Counted from the first letter of the stretch, positions 2,921 to 61,563 are shown. The stretch is DNA of 64,000 nt from Candidatus Accumulibacter vicinus (GCA_002425405.1 DIME01000188.1:6310-70309); one strand, 5' to 3'. The notes: generated by a model not told the origin, from the sequence alone. Made by a program: numbers and translations.

Positions 2921-2938
2921 AGTATGGTTACCTTCGTT

Positions 2939-5360: not shown

Positions 5361-6944
5361 TCAGCGCCTCAGATACGACAGCATCTTCGGCAGCACCACG
5401 TTATTGCCGAAGCCATCCTCGCCGTAGCCAACCCTGGCCAGGGCGTCCACATCGGCCAGGACGCGCTTGTCGCCAATAAAGGTGACGGTCAGATCGGTGC
5501 GGATGTCGAGTTGTCCCGTGGCCTGCAGGCGTGCAACCTCGGCGACGGTGTTTTCGAGGACGCCGCCTGCACGGCGACCGATCTCTTCGGAGATCTCGAG
5601 CGGCTGGCGGTAGAGAATCACCTTGCCTTCGCCGGACAGCCGATGCACGATGGCCAGCACGGCGGCAGCGATTGCCGAGGGTTCCAGTGTGCCCTCCTGG
5701 TCGGGATGGACGCGAGCGATTTCCGTTGCCAGCCAGCGCCGCTTGCGCGCATTGATGGTTTCGTTGGCGCGGAAGAGGTCGAGCGGCGAGCCGGCGTCGA
5801 AGAGCTTGCCGTCCAGATCCATCTGCACCTCGCTGCCGTAATGCGCAACGATGCGCGCCACCAGATTCGATGGCCGCACGTGGAAGCCCCGGTAGCTGGG
5901 CACTGGAACCTCCAGCCGCCCCGGCTCGGCATAGCGGCGCAGGATGTTCTGGCTGAGACGCTGGCCGCCGTCGAGAAAATCGCTCGAGAAGGCCATGGCG
6001 TAGGCGAACAGGGTGGCCATGATGACGTCGCTATCGACCACCGGCCGTTCGCACAGCAGACCGTCGCCAGTCTGCGGGCTGACGTGCCGCTCGTAGTAAT
6101 GGGCTAGGTCAGTAGCGATCTTGAGCAGATGATAAATGACGCTGGCGTGACCGCGCAGGATCGACAGATCCGGGTCCAAGGTCTCGATCCAGGTTCTGGA
6201 AACGTGGGTATCGTAGAGTGACTGAAGGTTGTGGAAACGGAAGCTGAGCTGGCGCAGACGTTCCTCACTGACCGGATCCGGGAAACAGAGCGCATAGTCC
6301 TGCGGTGGCACGCGGGCCGAGGTGCGCAACAGCTCGCTTTCCGCCGCCAGATTGAGGAACTCCGTTGCCAGATAGGTGACGGTGGTGCTCGCGTCGGTGG
6401 TGATGCGGTCGTCGCAGTTGCGGGCCAGGCGACCAGACGGCAACTGTTCGGTAAAATTCTCTGGCATCGGGACAATGTCGGCGATCTCGACGCCGAGCAA
6501 CCGTGCTTCCTCCAGCAGACTGGCAGCGACCGTGGTGACGACGCCGCTCACGAGGCACAAGCGTTCGCCAGTCGCAGCGTGAAAATCGGCGTCCACCGCC
6601 AGCAAGCTGTAGGTCGGCAGGCGACGCTGCACGTGGGCGAGTGCCCGACCGATGCGCGCGAAGTTGCGCAGCGCCGCGACGAGGGCCCGCAAACGGCTCC
6701 AACGGCGGTTCTGGGAAGCCCCATACTCGTCGAGCAGCTCTTCCATCTGGCCCGATTCGAGCAGCAGCCGACCACTCAGCAGTCGCGTCAGGGCGAGCTC
6801 GCCGACGCCTCTGTCAGTCAGGCCGCGGGCGAGTTCGAGCAGTGGCCGGCCACGGGCTCGGATCAGCTCACGAAACTGCTGGTCGTCGATCAGCTGCTCT
6901 CCCGTCTTTGCGGCGGAGAAGTCGCGACCGATTGAATCGTTCAT
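5361..6944 (-). CDS. Large protein with C-terminal HPr-like phosphocarrier domain
   Basis: RGFHVRPSNLVARIVAHYGSEV...DAGSPLDL resembles HPr GLHARP...NAKS; start chosen at MNDSIG (6944). Confidence 0.7.
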   Translation of the reverse strand: MNDSIGRDFSAAKTGEQLIDDQQFRELIRARGRPLLELARGLTDRGVGELALTRLLSGRLLLESGQMEELLDEYGASQNRRWSRLRALVAALRNFARIGRALAHVQRRLPTYSLLAVDADFHAATGERLCLVSGVVTTVAASLLEEARLLGVEIADIVPMPENFTEQLPSGRLARNCDDRITTDASTTVTYLATEFLNLAAESELLRTSARVPPQDYALCFPDPVSEERLRQLSFRFHNLQSLYDTHVSRTWIETLDPDLSILRGHASVIYHLLKIATDLAHYYERHVSPQTGDGLLCERPVVDSDVIMATLFAYAMAFSSDFLDGGQRLSQNILRRYAEPGRLEVPVPSYRGFHVRPSNLVARIVAHYGSEVQMDLDGKLFDAGSPLDLFRANETINARKRRWLATEIARVHPDQEGTLEPSAIAAAVLAIVHRLSGEGKVILYRQPLEISEEIGRRAGGVLENTVAEVARLQATGQLDIRTDLTVTFIGDKRVLADVDALARVGYGEDGFGNNVVLPKMLSYLRR

Positions 6945-7172
6945 GATGTGCTTTTCCTCTGCTGACGCGGGAGTACACGCGAATGGTCGGCATTTTCCGG
7001 ATTTCGCGCCAATCGGCAAGTCTAATGCTGAGGGCGCCAGATTTCCTCCCTCAGCCCGGAGGAAGCGTAAGCGAGGGAACGGCTACGCCCGGACTTCGTC
7101 CACCCTTGACATCTCCGCCCCCTCAAACCGGCAAGGCCACCGCCCGTTTCCACACGAAACGACATAGCGCCT

Positions 7173-12424: not shown

Positions 12425-13591
12425 TCAAGCAGTCATTGCGGTCAGCCGCTGCAAGCCGGCGACAGTGGCCTGCAGGGTTTTCAGAAAGCCGGCGACCTGT
12501 TCTCCGCTATTGCCGCCACCGAGACTGACGCGGACCGCGCCACGGGCCAGCCCGGGATCAACCCCCATCGCCCGCAGCACATGCGATGGCTCGGGATTGG
12601 CACTCGAACAGGCCGCGCCGCTGGCGACTGCGTAGCCGGCGCGGTCCAGGTATCCGACCAGCGTTTCGCCATCGAGTTCAGGGAACGAGAAATAAACGGT
12701 GTTCGGGAGGCGCTCGGCAGCCTGGCCAAAGAGTGTCGCGCCGAGGCCGGTGAGGCCAGCTTCAAGCCGCCTGCGCATTTCAAGCAGCGGCTTCGCCAGC
12801 GTAGCTTGGCGCTCTGCAGCCAGGGTACAGGCGACGCCGAAACCGACGATTGCCGCTACATTCTCGGTCCCCGAACGTAGTCCGCGTTCGTGGCCACCAC
12901 CGGCAATCAGCGGCTCCAGTTCGACGCGCTTGTCGAGCACCAGCGCCGCTGCACCCTTGGGGCCGCCGATCTTGTGTGCCGACAAGGTCAGCGCATGCAC
13001 GCCAGCGGCATTGAGACGACGAAAATCGACGGCCAGCTTGCCCACCGCCTGCACCGCATCGGTGTGAAACCAGGCGCCGGCCATGCGCGCGTACTCGGCG
13101 AGTGATTCGAGATCCTGCAACACGCCGGTCTCGTTGTTGGCCAGCATCACCGAAACGATCTTCGGCTTTCGGGCCATGATCGCCGCGAAGTTGCCGATAT
13201 CGACCCGGCCGCTGGCGTCGACCGTCAGCTTCTCGAGTGTCCAGCCATGTTTGCACAATTGCTCGGCAGGTTTGATCACACAAGGGTGCTCAATCGCGCT
13301 GACGGCCAGCAGACCAGGCTTCAAACAAACTGCGGCACCCTTGATGAACAGATTGTTGGCTTCCGAACCGCCACTGGTAAACACCACTTCGCTTGCATGC
13401 GCACCGACTGCCGCAGCGACCTGGTCACGCGCCTCGTCAATCGCCCGCCGTGCCGCACGCCCATATTCGTGCCGGCTCGAGGCATTGCCGAACCGCCCCG
13501 AAAGATAGGGCAGCATCGCCTCGAGTACCGCCGGGTCGGGCGGGGTACTGGCATTGTGGTCGAGATACACGGGCGCGAACATGGCGGTCAA
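12425..13591 (-). CDS. Second group-I cysteine desulfurase (NifS/IscS-like)
   Basis: [27 protein letters not shown]...PSHVL; lacks the IscS C-terminal tail. Confidence 0.9.
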
Positions 13592-13594
13592 CGC

Positions 13595-14086
13595 TCAGCT
13601 TTCAAGGGCAACGGCCTTGGCGCGTGCCCGCGGCCTGCTCCGGCGCGCATCATGGACAACGGCGGCCTTGCCGCCGGTTCTCTGGAGTTGTTGATTGACG
13701 AGCTCGGCTAGCGTCACCGAACTGAGAAACTCGTACATCTTGTCGTTGAGCGTCGACCATAACTCGTGCGTCATGCAGCGCTCATCGTCGTGACAGTTCT
13801 CGCGGCCACCGCATTGCGTCGCATCGAGTGGTTCATCGACGGCACGGATGATGTCGGTAACCGTCATCTCGCTGGTTGGTCGCGCCAGACAGTAGCCACC
13901 ACCGGGGCCGCGCACGCTTTCGACGAGGCCATAGCGGCGTAGCTTGCCAAACAGTTGCTCCAGATAGGAAAGGGAAATCTTCTGGCGATCGCTGATTCCG
14001 GCCAGAGACACCGGACCTTCGCTGCAGCGCAGCGCCAGGTCGATCATCGCAGTAACTGCGAAACGTCCTTTGGTAGTTAGTCGCAT
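13595..14086 (-). CDS. iscR: Fe-S cluster regulator IscR (Rrf2)
   Basis: [34 protein letters not shown], three Cys plus His (QC...C....RC.THELW). Confidence 0.96.
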
Positions 14087-17549: not shown

Positions 17550-19004
17550 TCACGGCAAACGTTCGAAGTAGCGATCGATCAGGGTCGGATCGTCGAAATG
17601 GCGGCGCCCGACGAAAGCCGTCGCATGCCGCCCCCATTGCCGCATCTGCCCGGCGCTGATCACCCCCATCGGCCAGAAGTAGAAGCGTTCGCGCCGCTCG
17701 CTGCCGGCAATCAGCCCATCCGGAGTAAAAGCGCTGCGGTTGCCGCCGTCAGGTAAGGGTAGCGCACGCAGCTCGTCGTCGTCGCGCAGCACGAGTGCGA
17801 CGCTGCGATCCTGTCTCGCAACGTCGATTTCAACCCGCTGCAGATAGTGCGTGCCAGCTGCGAGTTTCAGCACGACGCGCTCGTGCGTCGCCGGCGAGCG
17901 GAGCGTTTGGGGGGAAAACAGGTTTTCATCGATGCTCTCGGTTTGCGGTCGCGCCCGTACCTGCTGGGTCGGTATGAACAGATGATAGCAGCCACAGGGA
18001 TGAATCGTGTCATAGACCAGGGGAGTGCCGTCCTCGGCCAGGGTGACGCGCCACATCAGGCCATCGAGCCGCCCGGCCAGGACGTCGTAGGCATGCACCG
18101 GTGGGCGTGCCGGAAACCATGCAGTGTATATCAGTTGTAGCGACCAGCGCCCACTGAAGCGTGCGTGGCTGGTGCGCACGTACAGCACCGGCTGGTCGAG
18201 GGCAACACCGATCCGCAGCCGGCCATCAGAATCGATCCGCCAGACCAGTGCGCCGGGGTAATCGGCGTCGCTCGCCGTGGCAATGTCGAGTTGCGGGGCG
18301 TGGCGAAGGATCAGGCTGTTCAGTGTCTGTCGGGAGAGCACTGGCAGGCCAAGTTCGGGCAACTCAAGCAGCGCTGGCATGGCGGTCAGGGATTCACTGA
18401 CGGTGTAGCGCCGACGCATGGCGGCAAACGGGTCAGTCGCGGCCTGTGCGGCAAACTCCGCCAGCGTGTCGCGCTGCCAGTTCCGGATGCCGGCAGCGAA
18501 AGCGTAGCGTGTCAGCGGATAGAGACCCAGCGCACGCATCCCGGTCGAGTAGTCGTCGGGCACCTGGACTGCTTCGAGCAACGCCGGCAGCTCGTGCTGA
18601 TCGGCCCATGCCAGCAGTTGCCGGCAAGCGGTCAGCGCGTCGGCCAAGGCAGTAGCGTCGTGACTGGCATTGCCAAGTTCGATGCGCCGCGCGGCGGCAT
18701 CCAGCACCGCCAGCGCAGCGCTCCAGGCCTGTGCCTGCGGCGCGGTCAAGTCGCTCTGCGCTGCCATCTGGGCGAGAACACGATCGACCCGCCGGTAGGG
18801 AAAACCTGGTACACGCGGCGCTTGTGCATCACGTGTGCCTGCCTCGTCGATCAGTCGGTCGCTTACCTGGAAAAGTCGCGCGCAATCCCCTAAGGCGTCG
18901 TCCTGCTGCAGACGCTGCGCGACCGGCGCGTATCCATAGGGGTCCGGACTTGCACAGCCGGCGAGCAGGCCGCAGCACAGAGCGATGGCGAGACCGTTCG
19001 TCAT
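17550..19004 (-). CDS. Lipoprotein of unknown function
   Basis: Lipobox LLAG-C at residue 17; 484-aa ORF with coding-like composition; conserved-looking YDTIHPCGCYH and QWGRHATAFVGRRHFDDP motifs. Confidence 0.7.
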   Translation of the reverse strand: MTNGLAIALCCGLLAGCASPDPYGYAPVAQRLQQDDALGDCARLFQVSDRLIDEAGTRDAQAPRVPGFPYRRVDRVLAQMAAQSDLTAPQAQAWSAALAVLDAAARRIELGNASHDATALADALTACRQLLAWADQHELPALLEAVQVPDDYSTGMRALGLYPLTRYAFAAGIRNWQRDTLAEFAAQAATDPFAAMRRRYTVSESLTAMPALLELPELGLPVLSRQTLNSLILRHAPQLDIATASDADYPGALVWRIDSDGRLRIGVALDQPVLYVRTSHARFSGRWSLQLIYTAWFPARPPVHAYDVLAGRLDGLMWRVTLAEDGTPLVYDTIHPCGCYHLFIPTQQVRARPQTESIDENLFSPQTLRSPATHERVVLKLAAGTHYLQRVEIDVARQDRSVALVLRDDDELRALPLPDGGNRSAFTPDGLIAGSERRERFYFWPMGVISAGQMRQWGRHATAFVGRRHFDDPTLIDRYFERLP

Positions 19005-35635: not shown

Positions 35636-35815
35636 GCAATTCCTCCCAGTGGTGATGACGAAGATCGCCTTCTCGAATGATCAAAGCCGTGAAGCCGTGA
35701 TTCTGATCGATGGACGGCGATTTGAAAATCGTTATTACCCGGGTTCTGCGGCACACACCCTGCCCCTATAACAGGACTATACTGTGGCCCCGTGCCTGCC
35801 AGAAGATCGCTGCTC

Positions 35816-36808
35816 ATGAACAACTACCCGATATCTGTCACCGCCCTGCTTCTGAACACGCTCCTGGTGGTTGCACCCGTCCATGCAGAAGAGACGCGCT
35901 ACCTTGGCCTCTGCGATGCTTCCGCTGCCGTCGCGCTCGGCGCAAGGCACTTCGTCGTCGCGGACGACGATCGTCATGTCCTGACCATCTACCAACGCGG
36001 CAAACCCGAAGCCGTGGCCTGCGTCGAGCTGCTCGGCAACAGCGGCGAGTGCCTGCCCAAGGCCAAGGCCAAGGCCACGAAATCGGACATCGAGGGTGCC
36101 GCGCGCATCGGCGACAGGATATACTGGATTTCCTCGCACGCCCGCAATCAGGACGGCGAGATCAAGGTGCAGCGGCGGCAGTTCTTTGCCACCGACGTGC
36201 TCGCAAGTGCTCCCTCACCAACGGTCAGCGCAGCCACCCCGCCCTACACCCGGCTTGTCGAGGACATCGCCGCCGAACCAAGGTTTGCAGTCCTCGGCTC
36301 GGCCAGCAAGCAGGCGATCGATCCCGAAATGCCGGGCGGCCTGAACATCGAAGGTCTCGCCGCGACCCCGGATGGGCAACTCCTGATCGGCTTCCGCAAT
36401 CCCTTGTCCGCACGCAAGGAAGCGCTGCTGCTGCCACTGAGAAATCCGGCGGCAGTGATCGATCAGGCAGCCAAGCCGGTCTTTGGCGATCTGATTGCGC
36501 TCGATCTCGGCGAGCGAGGGATTCGCAGCATCGATTTCGTCAATTCCCGTTTCGCGATCATCGCCGGCCCCTTGGGTGACAAGAAGAGCGGCAAGGGTTT
36601 CGCCCTCTATACCTGGTCGGGCAAGGCAGCCGATTCGCCGCAGCGGGTCAAGAAGATCGACTTCTCTGGCATGCACCCGGAAGCGCTCTTCGCGGCGGCC
36701 GGGAAAAACGAGATCTATGTGCTCAGCGACGACGGCAACCAGTGCAAGGACACCAAGCCAGGCGAGAAATCATTTCGTGGCTTTTCCTTGACTTTGCCTG
36801 ATCTCTGA
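35816..36808 (+). CDS. DUF3616-family secreted protein
   Basis: Signal peptide; CDASAAVAL, DIEGAA, WISSHARN, GLNIEGLA, LLIGFRNP, GIRSI, SDDG. Confidence 0.75.
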   Translation: MNNYPISVTALLLNTLLVVAPVHAEETRYLGLCDASAAVALGARHFVVADDDRHVLTIYQRGKPEAVACVELLGNSGECLPKAKAKATKSDIEGAARIGDRIYWISSHARNQDGEIKVQRRQFFATDVLASAPSPTVSAATPPYTRLVEDIAAEPRFAVLGSASKQAIDPEMPGGLNIEGLAATPDGQLLIGFRNPLSARKEALLLPLRNPAAVIDQAAKPVFGDLIALDLGERGIRSIDFVNSRFAIIAGPLGDKKSGKGFALYTWSGKAADSPQRVKKIDFSGMHPEALFAAAGKNEIYVLSDDGNQCKDTKPGEKSFRGFSLTLPDL

Positions 36809-37643: not shown

Positions 37644-38543
37644 TCAAGCGGGAAAGACCCCGGTCGACAGATAGCGGTCCCCACGATCGCAAACGATGCT
37701 GACGATCATCGCATTCTCGACTTCGCTGGCGACCCGCAAGGCGACGACCAACGCGCCACCCGACGAGATGCCGGCGAAAATCCCTTCTTCGCGTGCCAGG
37801 CGGCGGGTCATTTCTTCTGCCTCGCCCTGCCCGACCGATTCGACGCGATCGACACGCGAGCGGTCGAAGATCTTCGGCAGATAGGCTTCCGGCCACTTGC
37901 GGATGCCGGGGATCTGCGAACCGTCCTCGGGCTGGCAGCCGACGATGCAGATGCCGGGGTTCTGTTCCTTGAGGTAGCGTGACACCCCCATGATCGTTCC
38001 GGTGGTGCCCATGCTGCTCACGAAATGGGTGATTCGCCCCGCAGTCTGGCGCCACAGCTCGGGACCGGTACCTTCGTAGTGTGCCAGCGGGTTGTCCGGG
38101 TTGGCAAACTGATCAAGGATGATGCCGCGGCCTTCGTTGCGCAGGCTCTCGGCAACGTCACGCGCCAATTCCATGCCGCCATCCCTGGGCACCAGCACCA
38201 GTTCGGCGCCAAAAGCGCGCATCGTCTGCCGGCGTTCGATGCTCTGATTTTCCGGCATCACCAGAATCATCCGATAGCCGCGCACCGCCGCCGCCATGGC
38301 CAGGGCGATGCCGGTATTGCCCGAAGTGGCCTCGATCAGGGTGTCCCCCGGTTTGATGTCGCCACGCTGTTCGGCGCGTGCAATCATCGACAGCGCCGGC
38401 CGATCCTTGACCGAGCCGGCCGGATTGTTGCCTTCCAGCTTGGCCAGAACGAGATTACCGCGAGCGTCGTTGGCGGTGCCCGGTATACGCTGCAGACGCA
38501 CCAGCGGCGTTTCGCCGACGTACTCTTCAAGGGTCTTATGCAT
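37644..38543 (-). CDS. cysM: Cysteine synthase B
   Basis: [47 protein letters not shown]. Confidence 0.96.
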
Positions 38544-39540
38544 GCTCGTTCAGCCAGTTAACGTATTGCGCAACGCCTTCCTCGACACTGGCAAACGGGG
38601 CCTCATAACCCGCCTTGCGCAGCCTGGTGAGGTCGGCTTCGGTGAAACTCTGGTACTTGCCCTTGAGATCCGCCGGAAACGGGATGTATTCGATCAGCCC
38701 TTGCTGCACCAGTTCGGCGAGCGGCAGCGCTGCCTCGCCAAACAAGGCCCGGCAACCATTGACGCTGGCCATCGCCAGGTCGTTGAAAGGCTGTGCGCGA
38801 CCGCTGCCGACGTTGAAAATCCCCGATTTCTCCGGATGATCGAGGAAAAACAGGTTGACGTGCGTGACATCGCCGACATGCACGAAATCGCGTCGCTGTT
38901 CGCCATCGGCATAGCCATCGCAGCCTTCGAAAAGCTTGACCTTACCCTGACTGCGGAACTGCTGAAAATGATGGAAGGCGACCGAGGCCATGCGCCCCTT
39001 GTGCGACTCGCGCGGACCATAGACGTTGAAATAGCGGAAGCCGACGACCTGCGAGTGGGACGGACCGGCGACGGCAAGGCGTTGCCGGACCACCTGGTCG
39101 AACAGGAACTTCGAATAGCCGTAGACGTTCAGCGGTGCCTCGTGCGCTCGCTCTTCCCGGAAAACGCTGCCGCCGCCGTAAGTTGCCGCGCTCGATGCGT
39201 AGAGCAGCGGTACTTCCTGATCAAGACACCAGTCGAGAAGATCCAGCGAGTAACGGTAATTGTTCTCCATCATGTAGCGGCCATCGCTCTCCAGGGTATC
39301 GGAACATGCCCCCTGGTGGAGAATGGCATCGATGTCACCGTCAAAGTCGCCGGCCAGCAAGCGGCTGAGGAATTTCTGTTTGTCGATGTAATCGGCGATG
39401 TCGCAATCGACGAGGTTACGAAACTTGTCGGCCCGGCTCAGATTGTCGACGGCAATGATCCTGCGCATGCCGCGCTCGTTGAGCGCCTTGACGAGATTGG
39501 AACCAATGAAGCCGGCTGCGCCGGTAACGATGGTATACAT
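38536..39540 (-). CDS. hldD: ADP-L-glycero-D-manno-heptose 6-epimerase
   Basis: [41 protein letters not shown]. Confidence 0.96.
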
Positions 39541-39549
39541 GGATTGACC

Positions 39550-40482
39550 TCACTTGAGTGCCGCAGCCAGTTCACGATGGCTGACCACCGCCGTACCGAG
39601 CTTGCCAACGACGACGCCGGCCGCAACATTTGCCACCCGGACGGCCTCCGGCCAGGCCGTGCCGCACGCGAGCATCACGGCCAGGGTAGCGATGACCGTA
39701 TCGCCGGCACCAGACACATCGAAGACCTCCCTAGCCACGGCCTGCTCGTAGATCGCCCCGCCAGCATGGAAGAGCGACATCCCTTCCTCGCTGCGGGTCA
39801 CCAGCAGCGCTTCGAGTCCCAAATCGCAGCGCAATGCTTCGGCCTTGTACGCCAGTTCGCCGTCGTCGTGCCAGCGACCGACCACGGTGCGTAACTCGTT
39901 GCGGTTCGGCGTGACGATGGTCGCGCCCGCATACTTGGAGAAATCGTCGCCCTTGGGATCGACCAGAACCTTCTTGCCGGCCGTGCGCGCCAATCGGATC
40001 ATCTCGCCGATGTGCGCCAGGCCGCCCTTGCCATAATCGGAGAGGATCACCGCGTCGCATGTCGGCAGGCGCGCCGCGAACTCGGCGAGCTTGGTGCGCA
40101 ACACCTCATGTGAAGGGGCCGTTTCAAAATCGATGCGCAGCAGTTGCTGTTGCCGGCCAATCACGCGCAGCTTGACCGTCGTGCTGATCGCAGCGTCGAG
40201 ATGCAGGCTGGCCTCGATGCCACTTGCGGCCAGCAGTCTCTGCAGGCAGCGCCCGGCTTCGTCGTCGCCAACCACCGACAGCAGGGCGACCTGCGCACCC
40301 AGGGCAGCGACGTTGCGAGCGACGTTGGCGGCCCCGCCGGGACGCTCTTCGCTGCGGTCCACCTTGACCACCGGCACCGGTGCCTCGGGAGAGATGCGAG
40401 AGACCTCGCCAAACCAGTAGCGATCAAGCATCACATCGCCGACGATCAGCAGCTTGGCGGTCGCGAAATCAGGGACGTGCAT
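39550..40482 (-). CDS. rfaE1: D-glycero-beta-D-manno-heptose-7-phosphate kinase (stand-alone kinase half of HldE)
   Basis: VGDVMLDRYW.G...RISPEAPVPV, SDYGKG, DVSGAGDTV (PfkB fold). Confidence 0.93.
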   Translation of the reverse strand: MHVPDFATAKLLIVGDVMLDRYWFGEVSRISPEAPVPVVKVDRSEERPGGAANVARNVAALGAQVALLSVVGDDEAGRCLQRLLAASGIEASLHLDAAISTTVKLRVIGRQQQLLRIDFETAPSHEVLRTKLAEFAARLPTCDAVILSDYGKGGLAHIGEMIRLARTAGKKVLVDPKGDDFSKYAGATIVTPNRNELRTVVGRWHDDGELAYKAEALRCDLGLEALLVTRSEEGMSLFHAGGAIYEQAVAREVFDVSGAGDTVIATLAVMLACGTAWPEAVRVANVAAGVVVGKLGTAVVSHRELAAALK

Positions 40483-51895: not shown

Positions 51896-52315
51896 CGCTC
51901 CCGATTTCCCCGGACCCGGCAGGAGAGGGTATCGGGTGTGAATAATTGACCGCAGTTGATCAGGAACATATACTCTCGCGGACAGTTCTGGGTTTCCTTT
52001 CTTCTCATATGCTCGGGATGGTCTGGAGGGCCGCTGGCAGTGCCGCCTCGTTGGTCTGACGACTTCCGGAACATTCCTGGTGGGTGGTCGATGCTCCCTG
52101 GCGGCGCGAACGCCGCCACTCGCCGACCGACGTGTGTACCCTCGCAGGTTGACGGGCGGGTTTGAACTCGCGTAATGACGAAGTATCAACTTCGCTGCGC
52201 CTGCCACGACCCCTCTCTTGATTAACACGTTTTTAGCAAGCCGTTGGCATCGCAAGGGCACCGTGCCATGGCACGGGAGGTAATCGCCAATGCTGTGGAT
52301 AGTTTAGAGGTAGAA

Positions 52316-54850
52316 ATGCTCGCAAGCACCATTCCTTCACCACCCAACAGCCTCGACAAGCCAGGCACGATCAGGGTTTTCGATTTTGCCCTGGTCGGTA
52401 TCCAATTGGTGTTGCTTCTGCTTCTCTTGCGCCAATTCCAGATCGAATCCGCGGCCTTCCTGCGGCTCGCCGCCCTTGCCTTCGGCGGCTTTGCCATTCA
52501 TGCCTGGCTGCCTCTGCGCTACCGTTTGCCATTCTTTCTACTCTTGAGTTTCGCGGGTATCGGGGTCGTCATGGGCTTCGAGAACGGCGCCTGGATGATC
52601 GGGATAGGGTTGCTCCTGATAGGCATCTGCCATATCCCGGTTTCCTTTACGTTGAGGGGCGCCTTGCTGCTGCTCGTGGGAGCGCTTCTGGCGGCACAAC
52701 GCGCAAAGCTCCTGCCGTTTCCCTGGTCGGAAGCAATCTGGCCGATTCTCGGCTCGATGTTCATGTTCCGGCTGATCGTGTACTTCTATGACCTGCGCCA
52801 CGAAAAGGTACCGGGGACGCCAGTCCAGGCTCTGGCCTATTTCTTCATGCTGCCAAATGCCTGTTTCCCCCTTTTCCCCGTGGTTGACTACAAGGCATTT
52901 CGCCGCAGCCATTTCGACGATGATGCCTACCGTGTCTATCAGGTCGGCATCGACTGGATGGTCCGCGGTGTCATCCATCTGATCCTGTATCGGGTGATCT
53001 ACTATTACTTCACGATGGCGCCCTCCGAGGTCAACACCCCGGCCGACCTGTTGAATTACCTCGTATCGAACTTCCTGCTCTACCTGCGCGTATCGGGCCT
53101 GTTTCACCTGATTATCGGCATGCTTTACCTGTTTGGTTTCCGTCTGTCGGAAACGCACAACCGCTACCTGCTGGCGACGAGCTTCACGGATTTCTGGCGG
53201 CGCATCAACATCTACTGGAAAGACTTCATGCAGAAGGTCTTCTATTACCCGGTGGTGTTCAAACTGAAAAAGCTGGGGGCGACAAAGGCGCTGGTGATCG
53301 CGACGCTCTATGTTTTCGTGATGACGTGGTTCCTGCACGCCTACCAATGGTTCTGGCTGCGTGGCACGCTGCTCTTCGTGCCACAGGACATCCTATTCTG
53401 GGCGATCCTGGGCGTTCTGGTGGTGCTCAATTCGCTCTACGAGATCAAGCATGGACGGTCGCGAAGCATCGCGGCGAAGAAGCGGACCCTGCGCGATGTC
53501 CTTCTTTCGATCGTGAAGACCTACGGCACCTTCTGGTTCATCTGTGTCCTCTGGTCTTTCTGGACGGCGGAAACCCTGGGCGACTGGTTCTCCTTATGGG
53601 GTGCCCTACACGGCGACTTCAGCTGGCAGGTGCTGGCCTGGCCAGCCGTCGTCCTGCTGGTGGTTGCCGTCGGCTCGATCCCCAAGGAGACCTTGCGCAA
53701 TATCAAGGTTTCGGCGCAGGAAGAAAGCGAGTGGATTCGCTCACGCATCGTCACTGTTGTCGCATTGATCGGACTGATTCTGATCAGTATCGAAGGGGTG
53801 GCCACCCGGATTAGCCCGAACATCGCGACGATCGTGCATTCACTACGTTCCGGACAGTTGAGCCGCCTTGATCAGGCCAAGCTGGAAAAGGGCTATTATG
53901 AAAACCTTCTGTCGGTGGATCGTTTCAACTCTCAGCTCTGGGAGGTCTATACCAAGAAACCCGCCAACTGGCTGGACGTCGACAATGCCAATCTGAAGCG
54001 TTTCAACGGCGGCTTTGCACAAACGGAACTGATCCCGTCTTTCGTTTCTCGCACCAAGTACGGTGATATCACCATCAATCGCTGGGGAATGCGGGATCGT
54101 GACTACGCGCTGGAACCCGCTGCCGGCGTCTTTCGTGCCGCTGTCCTCGGCGCATCCTCGGTGATGGGCTGGGGTGTGGGAGACGGTGAAACCTTCGAAG
54201 CGCTCGTCGAAGAGCGCCTGAATACCGAGCGACCGGTCGTTGGCATCGACCACTATGAATTCCTGAACTTCGGCGTTCCCGGTTATCAGCCGCTGCAGCA
54301 ACTCGTGGCCTTTGAGAAAGCCATGCAGTTTCGGCCGAATGCCGTGATCTACGTCGCGACCGGACGTGAGCTGTCGCGTGCTGCGGTCTACCTCGCCGAA
54401 GCGGTCAGGAAGCGGATCGATATCCCCTATGAGGAGTTGCGACAAATCGTTCAGCGCTCGGGGATCACGCCGGAGATGGAGGAAGCCGAGGCACTCAAGC
54501 GCCTGACGCCATACCGCAAGGAAATGCTGAATTTCGTCTACGGATCGATCGCGGCGCGCGCGCGCGCCAGCGGCACCCTCTCGATCCTGCTTTTTTTGCC
54601 ACAGGTTACTGATGGGTCATGGCGAGAGGAGACGGCCGATACCCTCGCGATCGCAGCGGGTGCGGGCTTCGTGATCATTGATCTGGACGACCTCTACAAG
54701 GGCCGCGACATCAACCAGTTGCGGCTTGCCGAGTGGGACGACCACCCGAACACGCAAGGCCATCGCCTGGTCGCAGAGCACCTGTACAAAGGACTTCTCG
54801 AGCGACGCGAGCAGGTGTTCAAGACCGACCGCATCCACCACGCACAGTAG
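52316..54850 (+). CDS. MBOAT O-acyltransferase fused to a C-terminal SGNH-like periplasmic domain
   Basis: Multiple TMs; SFTDFWRRINIYW and WFLHAY (MBOAT His); C-terminal VLGASS..G.GV, NFGVPGY, DDHPNTQGH (SGNH blocks); RBS GAGG before ATG 52316. Confidence 0.85.
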   Translation: MLASTIPSPPNSLDKPGTIRVFDFALVGIQLVLLLLLLRQFQIESAAFLRLAALAFGGFAIHAWLPLRYRLPFFLLLSFAGIGVVMGFENGAWMIGIGLLLIGICHIPVSFTLRGALLLLVGALLAAQRAKLLPFPWSEAIWPILGSMFMFRLIVYFYDLRHEKVPGTPVQALAYFFMLPNACFPLFPVVDYKAFRRSHFDDDAYRVYQVGIDWMVRGVIHLILYRVIYYYFTMAPSEVNTPADLLNYLVSNFLLYLRVSGLFHLIIGMLYLFGFRLSETHNRYLLATSFTDFWRRINIYWKDFMQKVFYYPVVFKLKKLGATKALVIATLYVFVMTWFLHAYQWFWLRGTLLFVPQDILFWAILGVLVVLNSLYEIKHGRSRSIAAKKRTLRDVLLSIVKTYGTFWFICVLWSFWTAETLGDWFSLWGALHGDFSWQVLAWPAVVLLVVAVGSIPKETLRNIKVSAQEESEWIRSRIVTVVALIGLILISIEGVATRISPNIATIVHSLRSGQLSRLDQAKLEKGYYENLLSVDRFNSQLWEVYTKKPANWLDVDNANLKRFNGGFAQTELIPSFVSRTKYGDITINRWGMRDRDYALEPAAGVFRAAVLGASSVMGWGVGDGETFEALVEERLNTERPVVGIDHYEFLNFGVPGYQPLQQLVAFEKAMQFRPNAVIYVATGRELSRAAVYLAEAVRKRIDIPYEELRQIVQRSGITPEMEEAEALKRLTPYRKEMLNFVYGSIAARARASGTLSILLFLPQVTDGSWREETADTLAIAAGAGFVIIDLDDLYKGRDINQLRLAEWDDHPNTQGHRLVAEHLYKGLLERREQVFKTDRIHHAQ

Positions 54851-54878
54851 TTTGACAAACCAAACCAACGGAGGTCAC

Positions 54879-55133
54879 ATGAATACAGAAGAACTGAAAC
54901 AGGCCATAAAGAATTACATCATCCAGGAGTTTCTGCCGGGCGAAAACCCCGATAACGTGACCGATGACCTCCCGCTGATCAGCAGCGGGATTCTGGACTC
55001 GATTGCGACGCTCAAGCTCGTGCTCTTCATCGAAGAGCGCTTCGGGATTACCCTCGAAGCGCACGAAACCGACAAGGAAAACATGGATACGCTTGCCCAG
55101 ATGGTCGCCACCATCGAGGCCAAGCAGAAGTGA
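54879..55133 (+). CDS. Acyl/peptidyl carrier protein
   Basis: 84-aa acidic protein with GILDSIATLKLVLFIEERFGI phosphopantetheine motif; RBS GGAGG. Confidence 0.92.
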   Translation: MNTEELKQAIKNYIIQEFLPGENPDNVTDDLPLISSGILDSIATLKLVLFIEERFGITLEAHETDKENMDTLAQMVATIEAKQK

Positions 55134-55137
55134 GTGA

Positions 55138-56706
55138 ATGATGAGCACTCGGGCATTGCACCAGGCGTTTCTTGCCGCCGCCGAGCATTTTCCGGAGCGC
55201 ATTGCCGTCGTCGAACCCGGCGAAGGAGAGATCAGCTATCGACAACTTGCCGATTTGTCGGGCCGCACGCGCGATCAACTGCGCGCACGTGGCATCGGTC
55301 GTGGTGACCGGGTTGGTCTGTACCTGCGCAAGTCAATCGATACCGTCGCCGCGATCTACGCCATCCTGCGCGCGGGCGCGGCCTATGTACCGGTTGATCC
55401 GGGCGCGCCGCCGGCTCGCAACGCGTACATCATGCACAACTGTGGGGTGAAGTTGGTGTTCAGCGAGAGCCGCGTCACAGAAAAGTTCTGTGCTGAACTT
55501 GAAGCCATCGGAGCAACACCGCAGGTGATCGCTCTCGACGACGTGGGTGCCGGACTGGCCCTGGGGCGGTGGCTCGAAACGCAATCGAGTGCACTCCCGT
55601 TTGCACAGGAGGCAGACATCAGCGCGAATGATGACGATCTTGCCTATATCCTGTACACATCGGGATCAACAGGGAAACCGAAGGGCGTGATGCTGTCGCA
55701 CAAGAATGCCGTCAGTTTTGTCGACTGGTGTTCCGAGGTCTTTGAACCTCGAGAGACGGACACTTTCTCCGCGCACGCACCGTTTCATTTTGACCTCTCG
55801 ATTCTTGATCTGCACGTTTCCTTGAAGCACGGTGCCACGCTCGTGCTGATCACGGAAGATGTCGGCAAGGATCCGATGCGTTTGGCAAAGATCATCGCAG
55901 AGCACAGGATTTCAATCTGGTACTCGGCACCATCGATTCTGGGCCTGCTTGCGCAGTTCGGAAACCTCGCCAACCTCGAGTTCCCGGATCTGCGCCACGT
56001 GTTGTTCGCCGGCGAGGTTTTCCCGGTCAAGCACCTGCGCATCCTCTGCGGTTTGTGGACGAAACCGCGATACTTCAACCTGTACGGCCCAACCGAAACG
56101 AATGTCTGCACCTTCCACGAGGTCATCACGCCGGTACCGGAGGATCGCTCGGTACCTTATCCGATCGGGAGGGTCTGCTCGCACCTGCTCGGAAAAGTGG
56201 TTGATGAGAACGGCACGACCGTCGAGCGGGGTGCGGAAGGCGAACTGTGTATCGCGGGCCTGGGGGTCATGCAGGGTTACTGGGGACTCCCCGAGCAGAC
56301 TGAGAATAGTTTCCTGGTCGATCCGCAAGGAACACGGTGGTACAAAACGGGCGACATTGTCGTCGAGGAATCCGATGGCTGCTACATCTACCGTGGGCGG
56401 CGCGATCGCATGGTCAAACGGCGCGGCTATCGCGTCGAACTCGGCGAGATCGAAGCCGGTCTGTACAAGCATGCGCAAGTGAAGGAAGCTGCGGTTGTCG
56501 CGGTGCCCGATGAGGAAGCGGGCGTCAGGATCGTCGCACACCTGAGCTGCAAGGCGCAGGCCGTCCCGTCGTTGATCGAGATGAAACGCTTCTGTGGCGA
56601 GAACCTGCCCTTGTACATGATCCCGGACCGTTTCGTCTGGCAGCAGTCGCTTCCCAAGACCTCCACTGACAAAATCGACTATCAGCGCCTGAAGGAGATG
56701 GCTTGA
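55138..56706 (+). CDS. Stand-alone amino-acid adenylation enzyme, predicted L-proline:carrier-protein ligase
   Basis: YILYTSGSTGKPKG, FHFDLS, NLYGPTE, YKTGD, GRRDRMVKRRGYRVELGEIE, PKTSTDKID; hand-extracted code DLLYLALVCK. Confidence 0.85.
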   Translation: MMSTRALHQAFLAAAEHFPERIAVVEPGEGEISYRQLADLSGRTRDQLRARGIGRGDRVGLYLRKSIDTVAAIYAILRAGAAYVPVDPGAPPARNAYIMHNCGVKLVFSESRVTEKFCAELEAIGATPQVIALDDVGAGLALGRWLETQSSALPFAQEADISANDDDLAYILYTSGSTGKPKGVMLSHKNAVSFVDWCSEVFEPRETDTFSAHAPFHFDLSILDLHVSLKHGATLVLITEDVGKDPMRLAKIIAEHRISIWYSAPSILGLLAQFGNLANLEFPDLRHVLFAGEVFPVKHLRILCGLWTKPRYFNLYGPTETNVCTFHEVITPVPEDRSVPYPIGRVCSHLLGKVVDENGTTVERGAEGELCIAGLGVMQGYWGLPEQTENSFLVDPQGTRWYKTGDIVVEESDGCYIYRGRRDRMVKRRGYRVELGEIEAGLYKHAQVKEAAVVAVPDEEAGVRIVAHLSCKAQAVPSLIEMKRFCGENLPLYMIPDRFVWQQSLPKTSTDKIDYQRLKEMA

Positions 56707-57854
56707 TGGATTTTTCTTTCTCGGAAGAGCAGCGATTGCTGCGAGACAACATCGTCAGATTCGCCAAGGGTACGCTGAACCAGAAAGTGATCGAGCGTGA
56801 TCACAATCATGAGTTCTCTCGGGATCTGTGGCGCAAATGCGGAGAGATCGGCATTCAGGGATTGCCTGTTCCGGAGCAGTACGGCGGTTCCAATGTCGAC
56901 CCGCTGACTTGCGCGATCGCCCTGGAGGCGCTTGGCTACGCCTGCCACGATGGCGGCCTGGTGTTCTCTCTGTCGGCGCATCTGCTGGCCTGCGTCGTGC
57001 CGATCTGGCGGCACGGGACCGACGCCCAGAAGCAACGTTATCTGCCGGGATTGTGTGACGGGACCTGGATCGGGTCGCATGCGATCACCGAGCCAGGCTC
57101 GGGTTCGGACACGTTTTCGATGCGCACCCGTGCCGAGAAGGTAAACGGGGGCTGGAAGATCAATGGAACCAAGACCTTTATCTCGAATGGTCCGGTTGCA
57201 GACGTGGCGATCATCTTCGCGATGACCGATCCTGGCAAGGGTTTCCACGGCGGGGTCAGCGGCTTCCTGGTGGACGCCGGGCAACAGGGACTGTCGACCG
57301 GCAAGCCGTTTGAAAAGATGGGCTTGCGCACATCTCCGATCGGCGAATTAGTCTTTCAGGACATGTTCGTTCCCGACGACGCGGTGCTTGGAAAAGTGGG
57401 GGCCGGAGCCGCCGTTTTCGGGACGGCCATGGATTGGGAACGTGCTCTGCTCGTCGCCGGGCATATCGGCGTGATGGAACGGCTGCTGGAGACGGCGGTC
57501 GGCTATGCGCGAACGCGCAACCAGTTCAATCAGAGCATCGGCAAGTTCCAGGCGGTCTCGCACAAGATCGCCGACATGAAGGTCCAGCTGGAAGCGGCGC
57601 GCCTGCTCGCCTATCGGGCTGCCTGGAAACTCGGCAACTCGCGTAGCGCTTCCCTCGATGCGTCCATCGGCAAGCTGTTTGTGAGCGAGTCGCTGCTGCA
57701 ATCCGCGCTCGACTGCGTGCAGTTGCACGGAGGCTACGGCTTCATGGTCGAGTACGAAGTCGAGCGTGTCTTGCGTGACGCCGTCGCGGGAACGATCTAC
57801 TCGGGAACCTCGGAGATGCAGCGAAACATCATCTCGCGCTGGCTGGGATTGTAG
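56706..57854 (+). CDS. Acyl-CoA dehydrogenase-family flavoprotein, L-prolyl-carrier-protein dehydrogenase-like
   Basis: ITEPGSGSD, NGTKTFISN, KMGLRTSP, MDWER, HGGYG, IYSGTSEMQR; TGATG overlap with the ligase stop. Confidence 0.85.
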   Translation: MDFSFSEEQRLLRDNIVRFAKGTLNQKVIERDHNHEFSRDLWRKCGEIGIQGLPVPEQYGGSNVDPLTCAIALEALGYACHDGGLVFSLSAHLLACVVPIWRHGTDAQKQRYLPGLCDGTWIGSHAITEPGSGSDTFSMRTRAEKVNGGWKINGTKTFISNGPVADVAIIFAMTDPGKGFHGGVSGFLVDAGQQGLSTGKPFEKMGLRTSPIGELVFQDMFVPDDAVLGKVGAGAAVFGTAMDWERALLVAGHIGVMERLLETAVGYARTRNQFNQSIGKFQAVSHKIADMKVQLEAARLLAYRAAWKLGNSRSASLDASIGKLFVSESLLQSALDCVQLHGGYGFMVEYEVERVLRDAVAGTIYSGTSEMQRNIISRWLGL

Positions 57855-58051
57855 ATGCCTGCGTATGCTTCGCGGAAGCTGAACGGCCATGCGCACGAAA
57901 TGGGGGGCAAGGAATGGCGGCCTGAAGGTCAACCCGAGGACGTCAAGGGGCATGACTTTGTCACTAGCGTGGCAGCGCCTGGCTGACGAACGGTCTAAAT
58001 CAGTGCTTCCCTACCCAAACATCATTGCCGGGCTCTGAAGCAAGCCATCCC

Positions 58052-58082
58052 AAAACCCGCCAGTCACACTGGCGGGTATTTT
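58052..58082. terminator. Bidirectional terminator-like hairpin between the acylation operon and msrA
   Basis: AAAA-CCCGCCAGT-CAC-ACTGGCGGGT-ATTTT. Confidence 0.75.
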
Positions 58083-58635
58083 ATTTGCCCTGAAATTTCT
58101 TTTCGAACTTCTCAATTTTCGGGCGGATGACCACCCGGCAGTAACCTTGATTGGGATTGGATCGGTAATAACTCTGATGATATCCCTCGCCAGCGTAGAA
58201 TTTTTTTAGCGCGACGATCTCGGTGACGATCGGATCTGGAAAATGCTTTTGAGCTGTCGCTTTGGATTTCTCAGCGATCTCTTTTTGCGCGGCGTCGTGA
58301 TATAAAATCATGGAACGATACTGGGTTCCGGTGTCGTGACCTTGCCGGTTCAGCGTCGTGGGATCGTGAGCTTCCCAGAATACTTCCAGGATCTTTTCGT
58401 AGGAAATCACCGTAGGATCAAAGGCAACCTGGATGACTTCCGCGTGTCCGGTGGTTCCGCTGCAAACCTGTTCATAGGTGGGATTCTCCGTCTGACCTCC
58501 GGCGTAGCCACTGGTGACGGATTTGACCCCGGTCAACATTTGAAAAACCGCTTCGGTACACCAGAAGCAGCCACCGCCGACGGTGGCAAGTTCCAAGGGC
58601 GCATTCGTGTTGGCAGGATTCATGGCAGGAATCAT
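58081..58635 (-). CDS. msrA: Peptide-methionine (S)-S-oxide reductase
   Basis: GGGCFWC, SGYAGG, TGHAEV, HDPTTLNRQG.D.GTQYRS, YHQSYY; start uncertain (58635 or 58623). Confidence 0.95.
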   Translation of the reverse strand: MIPAMNPANTNAPLELATVGGGCFWCTEAVFQMLTGVKSVTSGYAGGQTENPTYEQVCSGTTGHAEVIQVAFDPTVISYEKILEVFWEAHDPTTLNRQGHDTGTQYRSMILYHDAAQKEIAEKSKATAQKHFPDPIVTEIVALKKFYAGEGYHQSYYRSNPNQGYCRVVIRPKIEKFEKKFQGK

Positions 58636-60721: not shown

Positions 60722-60839
60722 GGTTCACACCAGTGGATGCGATCGCCAATCACTGCTCGAACAGTTCAGCACGACAAGAGTCGGCGTGGGCGCCTGGCAT
60801 GCCGGGATTGCGCTGTGCAAGCAGGCAGCTGCCGGGGAT

Positions 60840-61322
60840 TCACAGCCCTTCAGGGGCCGTGTAGATCGGAACGCAACGAACCTCGGTCCGCACGGAATTG
60901 GCGATGAAACACTCGTCATGCGCCTGGTGGTGCATCTGATCCAATTGCGCGCGTGTTGGCATGCTTGCACCGGAGAATTGCACCTCCGGACGCAGGGTGA
61001 CCACCGAGATGACCAGTTTGCCCGCTTCGTTCCTCTCCATGATGCCAGTGGCAGCGTCGAAGTAGCGATCGACGCAATACTTTCGCTTCGCTGCGATTGA
61101 CAGGAACCAAAGCATGTGACAGCTGGCCAGGGACGAGACAAAAGCCTCCTCGGGGTCGACTGCGAAGGTGTCGGACATTGGCACCGGCACGACATGCGGA
61201 GATGACGATCCCGGGATCTCGACGCCGCCATCGAAGCGCAAGAGATGCCGCCGGCTATATCGGTTGCCAAGAAAATCCTGCTCTCCACGGAGCCAAAGAA
61301 CTTCTGCGGTGTATTCGGACAT
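60840..61322 (-). CDS. OsmC-family peroxiredoxin-like protein
   Basis: YSRRH...FDGG, SSSP, VDPEEAFVSSLASCHMLWFL, AHDECFIANSV. Confidence 0.9.
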   Translation of the reverse strand: MSEYTAEVLWLRGEQDFLGNRYSRRHLLRFDGGVEIPGSSSPHVVPVPMSDTFAVDPEEAFVSSLASCHMLWFLSIAAKRKYCVDRYFDAATGIMERNEAGKLVISVVTLRPEVQFSGASMPTRAQLDQMHHQAHDECFIANSVRTEVRCVPIYTAPEGL

Positions 61323-61563
61323 GTATCGCTCTCCAAGGGTTCAGCACCGAGGTTTGGCTCCGCATGCCCGATGCTTCGAGGCATCCGGAGATCCTGATCG
61401 AGACCGGTTCCAGAAGCGGAATCGGGAAAATGTCCCGGGTACTTTCCAGGCCTCAGCATACACCCGAAACGCCGCATCGGGATCTCGGGAGCGCGCAGTC
61501 GATTGACCGCGCCTGCCGTGGTCAGTGATACTCTCTGGCGTAGCGCTGAATTTTCCATCTAAC

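Follow-up and report, generated by a model that had tools for sequence, protein, structure and literature searches.

Proline-derived acyl groups are handled by stand-alone proline ligases, type II carrier proteins and acyl-CoA dehydrogenase (ACAD)-family flavoproteins in the pyoluteorin, prodiginine, aminocoumarin and anatoxin pathways. PigA, RedW and PltE carry out four-electron oxidations to pyrrole, AnaB, the prolyl-acyl carrier protein dehydrogenase of anatoxin synthesis, carries out a two-electron oxidation, and the halogenases Mpy16 and PltA act on pyrrolyl-S-carrier proteins. Bacterial MBOAT/SGNH systems form a second group, in which the acyl group is carried on the tyrosine of an FXYXXF motif, with which DltX ends or, following two additional helices, the MBOAT protein itself (PMC12148441). 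Apart from Dlt, MBOAT/SGNH pathways use no carrier protein, and fused enzymes have been described for AT3-SGNH only (PMC12148441). Here we describe an operon from Candidatus Accumulibacter vicinus in which the two groups appear to meet. The analysed stretch is 64,000 nt long (referred to as the window; coordinates are those of the window unless a locus is named) and the operon lies at 52316-57854. Its four co-oriented genes on the + strand encode an MBOAT-SGNH fusion, a carrier protein, an adenylation enzyme and an ACAD flavoprotein. We read the operon as a self-contained, carrier-dependent acyl relay across the membrane that would follow the Dlt logic, with pyrrole-2-carbonyl as the cargo and an extracytoplasmic acceptor, and we put the probability of this reading at about 0.6. 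An earlier note made on this DNA had proposed a pyrrole module feeding an MBOAT-SGNH protein; the ligase code, the ACAD relatives, the fold and the gene linkage described below support that proposal.

The four genes are tightly packed. The intergenic distances are 28 bp (fusion/carrier) and 4 bp (carrier/ligase), and the ligase and ACAD genes share a 1-bp TGATG overlap, which reproduces exactly the values of the earlier note. The hairpin terminator that it had placed after the ACAD gene is also found. It has a 10-bp G+C-rich stem (58055-58077) 200 nt past the ACAD stop and a folding energy of -19.4 kcal/mol (z = -3.8 against shuffles); facing the convergent msrA, it may serve both genes. Two metatranscriptome runs from activated sludge contain near-identical sequence to the operon (92% and 83% of the words sampled). 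One of the runs contains two overlapping contigs spanning 52022-53536 and 53507-58077. The second contig starts within the fusion gene and stops at the terminator stem (58077), and the next contig begins at 58094, in msrA. This contig pattern fits one transcript for the four genes, and the operon appears to be expressed.

The cassette is spread over hundreds of species in more than 10 phyla. At least 3376 homologues of the fusion protein were found in 90% clusters; the best 120 share 63-96% identity with it and nearly all are about 845 aa in length. The window's own public protein, a 599-aa call (P0007), was recovered at 100% identity in the same search. Among 50%-cluster representatives, 1053 matched at E<=1e-30, with full-length matches among the 150 listed. 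The fusion gene occurs in at least 564 of 185,579 species (one genome per species). Its carriers include Proteobacteria of the Beta, Gamma and Alpha classes (Accumulibacter, Aromatoleum, Pseudothauera, Competibacteraceae, Mesorhizobium) as well as Acidobacteriota, Verrucomicrobiota, Chloroflexota, Gemmatimonadota, Planctomycetota, Bacteroidota, Calditrichota and Binatia. We retrieved 80 loci (designated by L numbers), 58 of which have enough flank to judge linkage within 10 kb. Carrier, ligase and ACAD genes lie within this distance of the fusion gene in 52 of the 58 evaluable loci (about 90%), in 36 of them in the order of the window. Among the remaining evaluable loci are one with a split ligase gene (L039), three with no ligase open reading frame (ORF), two with a carrier only and one with nothing. 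Since the flanking genes vary from genome to genome, the four genes appear to travel as a unit. The earlier note had named triads unlinked to MBOAT genes in other genomes as a sign against its proposal; among these loci of the fusion gene the linkage came out in its favour.

Some loci depart from the four-gene layout. Nine have two to three fusion copies, mostly in tandem or adjacent (L025, L052, L054, L061, L064, L066, L073, L076 and L084), and where the triad is visible most have just one triad; several fusion copies per triad suggest several acceptors or positions. A betaproteobacterial metagenome-assembled genome (MAG) has a fusion gene (L031, 9923-12756) and a carrier gene, with no ligase or ACAD gene within 10 kb downstream. 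The four genes were also found, by a plasmid search, on pMVF16-2 of Microvirga sp. VF16 (L089, 700063-720498), a complete 1.39-Mb replicon of a cultured legume symbiont whose PLSDB record has no annotation at the locus. Other cultured carriers are Aromatoleum anaerobium LuFRes1, Pseudothauera rhizosphaerae CC-YHH848 and Mesorhizobium amorphae CCBAU 01570. The layout on pMVF16-2 is divergent, with ACAD, ligase and carrier genes on one strand and the fusion gene on the other, and a Bac_transf gene is found 7 kb away. Beside the cassette, six Chloroflexota loci (L057, L069, L072, L075, L077 at 12574-13716, and L080) and a Calditrichaceae MAG (L053) also encode a membrane-anchored, stand-alone SGNH protein about 375 aa long.

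The adenylation enzyme matches the Pfam AMP-binding family above threshold and passes the NCBIfam cut-off for amino acid adenylation domains (TIGR01733, 369.7 bits against a cut-off of 317.4). It does not reach the cut-offs of the NCBIfam DltA models (302 and 297 bits; cut-offs 476 and 560). The best single-domain match in PDB is PltF (6o6e), the L-proline-carrier ligase from the pyoluteorin pathway, with 350 bits, compared with 210-256 bits for adenylation domains of nonribosomal peptide synthetases (NRPS) and about 216-219 bits for DltA. Over the 150-residue pocket region the scores are 127 bits for PltF, 82 for PigI and 66 for DltA. The Stachelhaus positions were taken from the alignment of this region and give the pocket code DLLYLALVCK for the window ligase, DLLYLALVC for PltF, DLFYIAWVC for PigI and DLMTMCTVA for B. 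subtilis DltA. The window ligase is identical to PltF at all nine aligned positions (residues 235-331), has the lysine K517, and differs from DltA at six of nine positions. Its code fits the published consensus of stand-alone L-proline adenylation domains, L(L/F)YLALVC (PMC3874040). All 66 cassette-type ligases compared across phyla have this code or differ from it at one position. From these comparisons the ligase very probably activates L-proline, which we regard as near settled short of an assay; the code reads as none of the substrates (alanine, glycine, serine or a fatty acid) that the earlier note had listed as speaking against it. A second type of proline ligase, with 42-44% identity to the window enzyme and the code DLFYLALVCK or DLLYLALVCK, is found as a second copy in three Anaerolineae loci (L063, L069 and L080) and as the sole ligase in a Gemmatimonadota locus (L068). 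In L063 and L080 it adjoins a halogenase gene and a divergent second carrier gene (32-38% identity).

The flavoprotein shows three ACAD domains above the Pfam thresholds. Among solved proteins its relatives are AnaB (4irn, 387 bits, 44% identity) and PigA (321 bits, 43%); generic ACADs such as butyryl- and isovaleryl-CoA dehydrogenases score 297 bits or less. The top NCBIfam matches are PigA (439.5 bits) and RedW (421 bits), both under their equivalog cut-offs. These relatives agree with the prolyl-carrier dehydrogenase proposed earlier. Glu245, in the sequence DWER, is the predicted catalytic residue; the glutamate of WE(R/K) is the residue mutated in the PigA entry 6af6. The sequence YSGTSE stands where the medium-chain acyl-CoA dehydrogenase type has the YEG glutamate. 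Both the WE(R/K) glutamate and YSGTSE are kept in 55 of 56 cassette ACADs, and both features fit the prolyl-carrier dehydrogenase type. Judged by its relatives and motifs, this enzyme is highly likely to oxidise its substrate on the carrier.

Clustering of flanking ORFs revealed a flavin-dependent halogenase gene inside the cassette at 11 loci (L057, L063, L066, L069, L070, L072, L075, L077, L080, L084 and L088). Eight are from Chloroflexota, one from Pirellulales, one from Binatia and one from an unclassified bacterium. Bit scores of the halogenase family are 562 with Mpy16, 560 with ChlB4 and 559 with PltA. The gene order in L072 is carrier, ligase, halogenase, fusion, GT-C, SGNH, ACAD, halogenase and carrier, and in L088 it is fusion, carrier, ligase, ACAD, CMD and halogenase, followed by icd, mdh and sucC. 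Some halogenase loci have two halogenases and two carriers. Five halogenase loci analysed with Pfam contain no ketosynthase, and no condensation domain within the stretch examined; in L066 a formyltransferase-AMP-binding ORF is interrupted by the locus edge. Because halogenases of the PltA/Mpy16 type occur in cassettes, five of them analysed with Pfam, without a polyketide synthase (PKS) or NRPS, a pyrrolyl-S-carrier is probably made there and passed to the MBOAT-SGNH protein. This argues that the ACADs of the clade make the pyrrole ring and that the MBOAT-SGNH protein is the only plausible consumer of a (halo)pyrrolyl-carrier. The earlier note had pointed out the lack of halogenase, PKS and NRPS genes; this holds for the window operon, which has none of them, and does not extend to the related cassettes, which do carry PltA-type halogenases.

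The state of oxidation was weighed with these halogenase loci in mind. An ACAD that stops at two electrons like AnaB would leave a dehydroprolyl (pyrroline-carboxyl) group for transfer, or even a prolyl group might be transferred. AnaB is indeed the best solved relative of the window enzyme, the window cassette is without a halogenase, and no ACAD was seen in L058 and L052, though their flanks are short. Such an outcome is nevertheless unlikely. The ACADs beside the PltA/Mpy16-type halogenases are themselves the most AnaB-like of all (49-54% identity in nine of 11), so AnaB-likeness is no predictor of two-electron chemistry, and we rejected the comparison of AnaB and PigA similarity as uninformative on oxidation state. 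The top family matches, PigA and RedW, are four-electron enzymes, and by our own reasoning an imine or enamine acyl ester would be labile outside the cell. Oxidation all the way to pyrrole is probable.

The carrier protein matches Pfam PP-binding above threshold (23.1 bits), with a predicted phosphopantetheine attachment site at Ser41 (codon 54999-55001), the serine of the DSI motif to which the earlier note had drawn attention. Its nearest solved proteins are type II peptidyl carrier proteins including PltL (37 bits); DltC scores 34.5 bits in the same comparison and 38.8 bits as an NCBIfam model. The best NCBIfam match is ACP_for_OlsHI (ornithine lipid), full length with 105 bits, under the cut-off of 130. 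We rejected an ornithine-lipid role, given this score below cut-off, the lack of a GH3-like or OlsI-like gene in the operon, and the fact that the term "acyl carrier protein" is never used in the OlsH/OlsI paper.

The ORF of the fusion protein opens with TTG at 52244. We consider ATG at 52316 the best start, with GAGG 5 nt upstream; conservation in the family begins near residue 20-30 of this version. Public start calls differ: besides the 599 aa of the window's own protein, other Accumulibacter calls are 724-776, 844 and 860 aa long, and the short ones remove part of the MBOAT domain. Proteins of Accumulibacter cognatus/phosphatis near-identical to those of the operon are labelled "hypothetical protein", "SGNH/GDSL hydrolase family protein" or "acyl-CoA dehydrogenase family protein". 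JGI labels homologues of the fusion protein with the DltB COG as "DltB (MBOAT superfamily)", and no NCBIfam model covers it. An AlphaFold2 model built from an input of 50 sequences has a pLDDT of 88.4 and a pTM of 0.86. Foldseek matched its N-terminal domain to DltB (8jem/6bug; E 2.5e-7, probability 1.0, TM by target 0.56-0.58), and further to HHAT and PORCN (TM 0.63-0.65), DGAT1 and LPCAT3. The MBOAT assignment of the earlier note is thus borne out at the level of the modelled fold and not by sequence. The C-terminal domain was matched to the SGNH hydrolases TesA and Axe2 and to PatB, most of its structural neighbours being esterases and thioesterases. It gives a weak Pfam Lipase_GDSL_2 score of 26-30 bits, under the cut-off of 32.9; the fold match and the invariant S614, D808 and H810 agree with the SGNH domain named earlier.

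Conserved residues were read from an alignment of 50 fusion sequences with 33-77% identity to the window protein. H264, R296, N298 and H341 (codon at 53336) are invariant in the membrane domain. R296 and N298 lie in WRRxNIYW, which presumably takes the place of the RRWH motif of AlgI and DltB. N298 precedes H341 by about 40 residues, as in the MBOAT arrangement of a conserved Asn/His and the catalytic His, and H341 is the candidate counterpart, by analogy, of the DltB catalytic His H336. Invariant residues of the SGNH part are G612 and S614 (GASS, block I) and D808 and H810 (WDDHPN, block V); N651 (block III) is kept in at least 90% of the sequences. Block V is DxH and not DxxH, with the conserved form WDxHPN. 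Between the two domains G526, Y527 and Y528 of the GYYE motif are invariant and E529 is nearly so. The motif stands behind two extra transmembrane helices, and by the positive-inside rule loops 380-391 and 454-464 are cytoplasmic, so that the GYYE motif would lie outside together with the SGNH domain. Because the invariant GYYENL occupies the place corresponding to FXYXXF, we propose Y527 or Y528 as the acyl-shuttle residue.

From these parts the following relay can be drawn. The ligase would activate L-proline with ATP and load it on the phosphopantetheine of Ser41, as its PltF-identical code suggests. The ACAD would then oxidise the prolyl-S-carrier, most likely to pyrrole-2-carboxyl-S-carrier by removal of four electrons, judging from homology and the sister halogenases; in some phyla the pyrrolyl-carrier would be halogenated before transfer. 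By analogy to DltB/DltX and PatA, the loaded carrier would dock on the cytoplasmic face of the MBOAT domain, where H341 would catalyse acyl transfer to the extracytoplasmic tyrosine, Y527 or Y528. Ser614 of the periplasmic SGNH domain may finally take the acyl group and esterify an acceptor hydroxyl, most probably on an envelope or secreted glycan. Transfer through the MBOAT-SGNH protein is likely.

The acceptor was considered from the genes around the cassettes. Of the 50 loci that are 15 kb or longer, 24 have at least one polysaccharide gene within 10 kb and 11 have at least two, a count that was made with 24 probe proteins and no matched background and for which enrichment is not claimed. 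One cassette (L002) adjoins exopolysaccharide (EPS) export genes of the PEP-CTERM type and another (L004) a nucleotide-sugar and Bac_transf block. Neighbours in Mesorhizobium include Wzx, GT4, GDP-fucose synthase and GT-C genes, and in other phyla Wzy, AT3, alginate-export and carbamoyltransferase genes. A set of exosortase-A-associated ligase, decarboxylase and hydrolase genes adjoins the cassette in the three loci L008, L038 and L055. In these Rhodocyclales loci (L008, 1-9800; L038, about 2000-3700; L055, about 1900-3800) the exosortase-A-associated acyl-CoA ligase has the pocket code DASTATMRAK and sits with a pyridoxal phosphate-dependent decarboxylase, to which L008 adds a second carrier and two hydrolases; the set is itself an uncharacterised acylation module. 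A glycan is the likeliest acceptor, at roughly even odds, and the count of flanking genes is suggestive. Peptidoglycan, lipids and hydrolytic release are possible alternatives.

Hydrolytic release would mean that no polymer is decorated: the MBOAT-SGNH protein would export the acyl group and its SGNH domain would free pyrrole-2-carboxylate by hydrolysis, into the medium or the periplasm, or a small molecule or lipid would be esterified. The self-contained cassette, often in housekeeping DNA without glycan genes, the esterases and thioesterases among the SGNH neighbours and the resemblance of the carrier to the ornithine-lipid family could all be read this way. We consider it quite unlikely, since envelope polymers are what all characterised bacterial MBOAT/SGNH relays acylate (PMC12148441), the free acid could be had much more simply with a cytoplasmic thioesterase, the two to three tandem fusion paralogues per triad (L054, L076 and L084) fit several acceptors better, and glycan genes are frequent neighbours. 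It is likewise improbable that the acyl group goes to a universal envelope component (peptidoglycan or a lipoprotein, for example) and not to an exopolysaccharide or O-antigen. The hosts differ widely in their envelopes (Proteobacteria, Acidobacteriota, Planctomycetota, Bacteroidota, Gemmatimonadota and Chloroflexota), the cassette is often unlinked to glycan loci, and PatA/PatB offers a precedent of an MBOAT/SGNH pair that targets peptidoglycan. The patchy distribution within genera and absence from most genomes (found in at least 564 of 185,579 species), the multiple paralogues and the repeated adjacency to EPS, O-antigen-type and exosortase-associated genes speak against such an acceptor. 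Chance adjacency of four genes with unrelated functions is effectively refuted by synteny (52 of 58 evaluable loci in many phyla with unrelated flanks), by the overlapping or near-abutting reading frames, and by the single metatranscriptome contig that begins within the fusion gene and reaches the terminator.

Several observations weigh against the proposed pyrrole-2-carbonyl relay. The window contains housekeeping genes only and no polysaccharide genes, and about half of the loci are without a recognisable polysaccharide gene nearby. The MBOAT part (N-terminal 528 aa) has no Pfam match even at E<=10, PF03062 included, and a phmmer search of it against PDB sequences gave no match. GYYENL matches FXYXXF loosely. 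The ACAD falls under the NCBIfam equivalog cut-offs of PigA (500 bits) and RedW (650 bits) and is slightly nearer to AnaB, with its two-electron product, than to PigA. The fusion gene occurs without the triad within 10 kb in L071 and with carriers only in L031 and L070; no ACAD gene was seen in the available stretch of L058 and L052, about 3 kb on one side and below the flank criterion. A phosphopantetheinyl transferase gene is not among the four genes of the operon. The metatranscriptome contigs may include DNA, and the other run has a contig that crosses the divergent promoter region.

Table 1. Positions of the operon features, other window ORFs and second-type ligases (loci named where positions are not in the window)
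Feature	Position	Strand	Remarks
Sigma-70-like promoter candidate	51946-51974	+	TTGACC-17 nt-TATACT; 10/12 matches; weak part
MBOAT-SGNH fusion, 844 aa	52316-54850	+	Alternative starts TTG 52244, ATG 52268
MBOAT-like membrane domain, about aa 20-455	52373-53680	+	Fold match, invariant residues
Candidate acyl-shuttle motif GYYENL, aa 526-531	53891-53908	+	Invariance; analogy to FXYXXF
SGNH domain, about aa 560-830, putatively periplasmic	53993-54805	+	Fold, block residues
Carrier, 84 aa	54879-55133	+	GGAGG Shine-Dalgarno; Ser41 in LDSIAT
Predicted stand-alone L-proline adenylation enzyme/prolyl-carrier ligase, PltF-like	55138-56706	+	522 aa
ACAD-family flavoprotein, predicted prolyl-S-carrier dehydrogenase/oxidase	56706-57854	+	382 aa
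Intrinsic terminator, hairpin and U tail	58055-58087	+	Possibly shared with convergent msrA
ORF without Pfam match	5361-7019	-	
ORF without Pfam match	17550-19004	-	
ORF without Pfam match	35792-36808	+	
ORF without Pfam match	38296-39894	+	
ORF without Pfam match	60725-61558	-	
Second-type proline ligase, L063	14327-15979		
Second-type proline ligase, L080	13713-15347		
Second-type proline ligase, L069	9200-10798		
Second-type proline ligase, L068	12956-14569		

The promoter candidate (Table 1) precedes the operon and lies in the intergenic region towards the divergent gyrA; the promoter scan as a whole gave no excess over shuffles. An Rfam scan of the 5' region found no riboswitch. Core chromosome genes surround the operon: upstream lie gyrA, pheA, hisC and aroA-cmk, downstream msrA and a gene for an MFS transporter, and further away in the window rpsA, tricarboxylic acid cycle genes and isc genes. 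In two Accumulibacter relatives with 96% identity a DDE transposase gene (L005, 15733-16140; L006, 6207-6614) is found about 146 nt beyond the ACAD stop, where the window has msrA. The left end of the window encodes a response regulator with DUF3369, GGDEF and EAL domains (689-2920, - strand), indicative of c-di-GMP signalling. Five long ORFs of 277-552 aa in the window have no Pfam match (E<=1e-5) and are candidate genes.

If the proposed relay is true, Dlt would be joined by a second carrier-protein-dependent MBOAT pathway, and a non-aliphatic, non-aminoacyl acylation would be described for the first time on a bacterial surface glycan. The envelope chemistry would be new, a heteroaromatic and sometimes halogenated acyl ester, and a carrier-dependent MBOAT relay, known so far only from Gram-positive D-alanylation, would be widespread in diderms. 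We suggest tentatively, at somewhat less than even odds, that more than 10 phyla decorate an envelope polymer with pyrrole-2-carboxylate, chlorinated or brominated in Anaerolineae, Planctomycetota and Binatia. Among the hosts are key organisms of wastewater (Accumulibacter, Competibacteraceae, Promineifilaceae/Anaerolineae) as well as rhizobia (Mesorhizobium, Microvirga), whose flocculation, granulation, adsorption of phages and symbiosis are controlled by surface chemistry. The modification could affect the hydrophobicity of flocs and granules formed by Accumulibacter and by the filamentous Chloroflexi of activated sludge. A large family now annotated as "hypothetical protein" or "SGNH/GDSL hydrolase family protein" would gain a function. 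PltF/PltE/PltA-like genes are usually taken as markers of diffusible pyrrole antibiotics, and the cassette would be an exception. In our literature search no MBOAT system fed by proline or pyrrole came up, and there was no report of a pyrrole-carboxylated glycan among the top-ranked literature, in agreement with the earlier note, which knew of no such envelope modification.

Compared with the known systems, the operon resembles Dlt in its sequence of a stand-alone ligase, a small carrier, an MBOAT protein across the membrane and delivery by an SGNH-fold protein. The carrier has a DltC-like length and GxLDSxxxxxL region, and the membrane domain finds its top structural match in DltB. The differences are the ligase code (DLLYLALVC for L-proline against DLMTMCTVA for D-alanine in B. 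subtilis DltA), the additional ACAD, the fusion of MBOAT and SGNH, and the lack of a separate small DltX-like gene in the operon, for which the internal GYYE motif may substitute. The cassette hosts are mostly diderm bacteria without teichoic acids, and teichoic acids are not expected in a betaproteobacterium such as Accumulibacter. The operon is outside the Dlt family though it would work alike. Its front half, as judged from the sequence comparisons, belongs to the triads of proline ligase, type II carrier and ACAD (PltF/PltL/PltE, RedM/RedO/RedW, PigI/PigG/PigA, CloN4/N5/N3 and AnaC/AnaD/AnaB), with which it shares the L(L/F)YLALVC code and, in sister cassettes, the PltA/Mpy16-like halogenases. 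It differs from them in that the window cassette has no PKS, NRPS, ketosynthase-type or CloN2/N7-type transferase and the MBOAT-SGNH protein is its sole acceptor-side enzyme; the window likewise has no PKS, NRPS or small-molecule acyltransferase gene downstream. The cassette is also located in core chromosome DNA and occurs in many phyla from which pyrrole natural products are not known.

PatA/PatB, AlgI/AlgJ/AlgF/AlgX and WssH/WssI share with the operon an MBOAT protein together with an SGNH-type transferase, with the acyl group passing from tyrosine to serine on its way to extracytoplasmic glycans (PMC12148441). Those systems take acetyl-CoA as the donor, use no carrier, have separate MBOAT and SGNH proteins and carry FXYXXF at the C-terminus, whereas the system of the window has a predicted carrier-bound heteroaromatic donor and fused domains. 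OatA/OafA-type AT3-SGNH fusions resemble the fusion protein in that one polypeptide holds a membrane acyltransferase domain and, behind it, a periplasmic SGNH domain; they differ by the AT3 fold in place of MBOAT and by the acetyl-CoA donor. We place the operon as a new cargo and a fused architecture for the carrier-dependent MBOAT-SGNH relay, widespread and so far unannotated.

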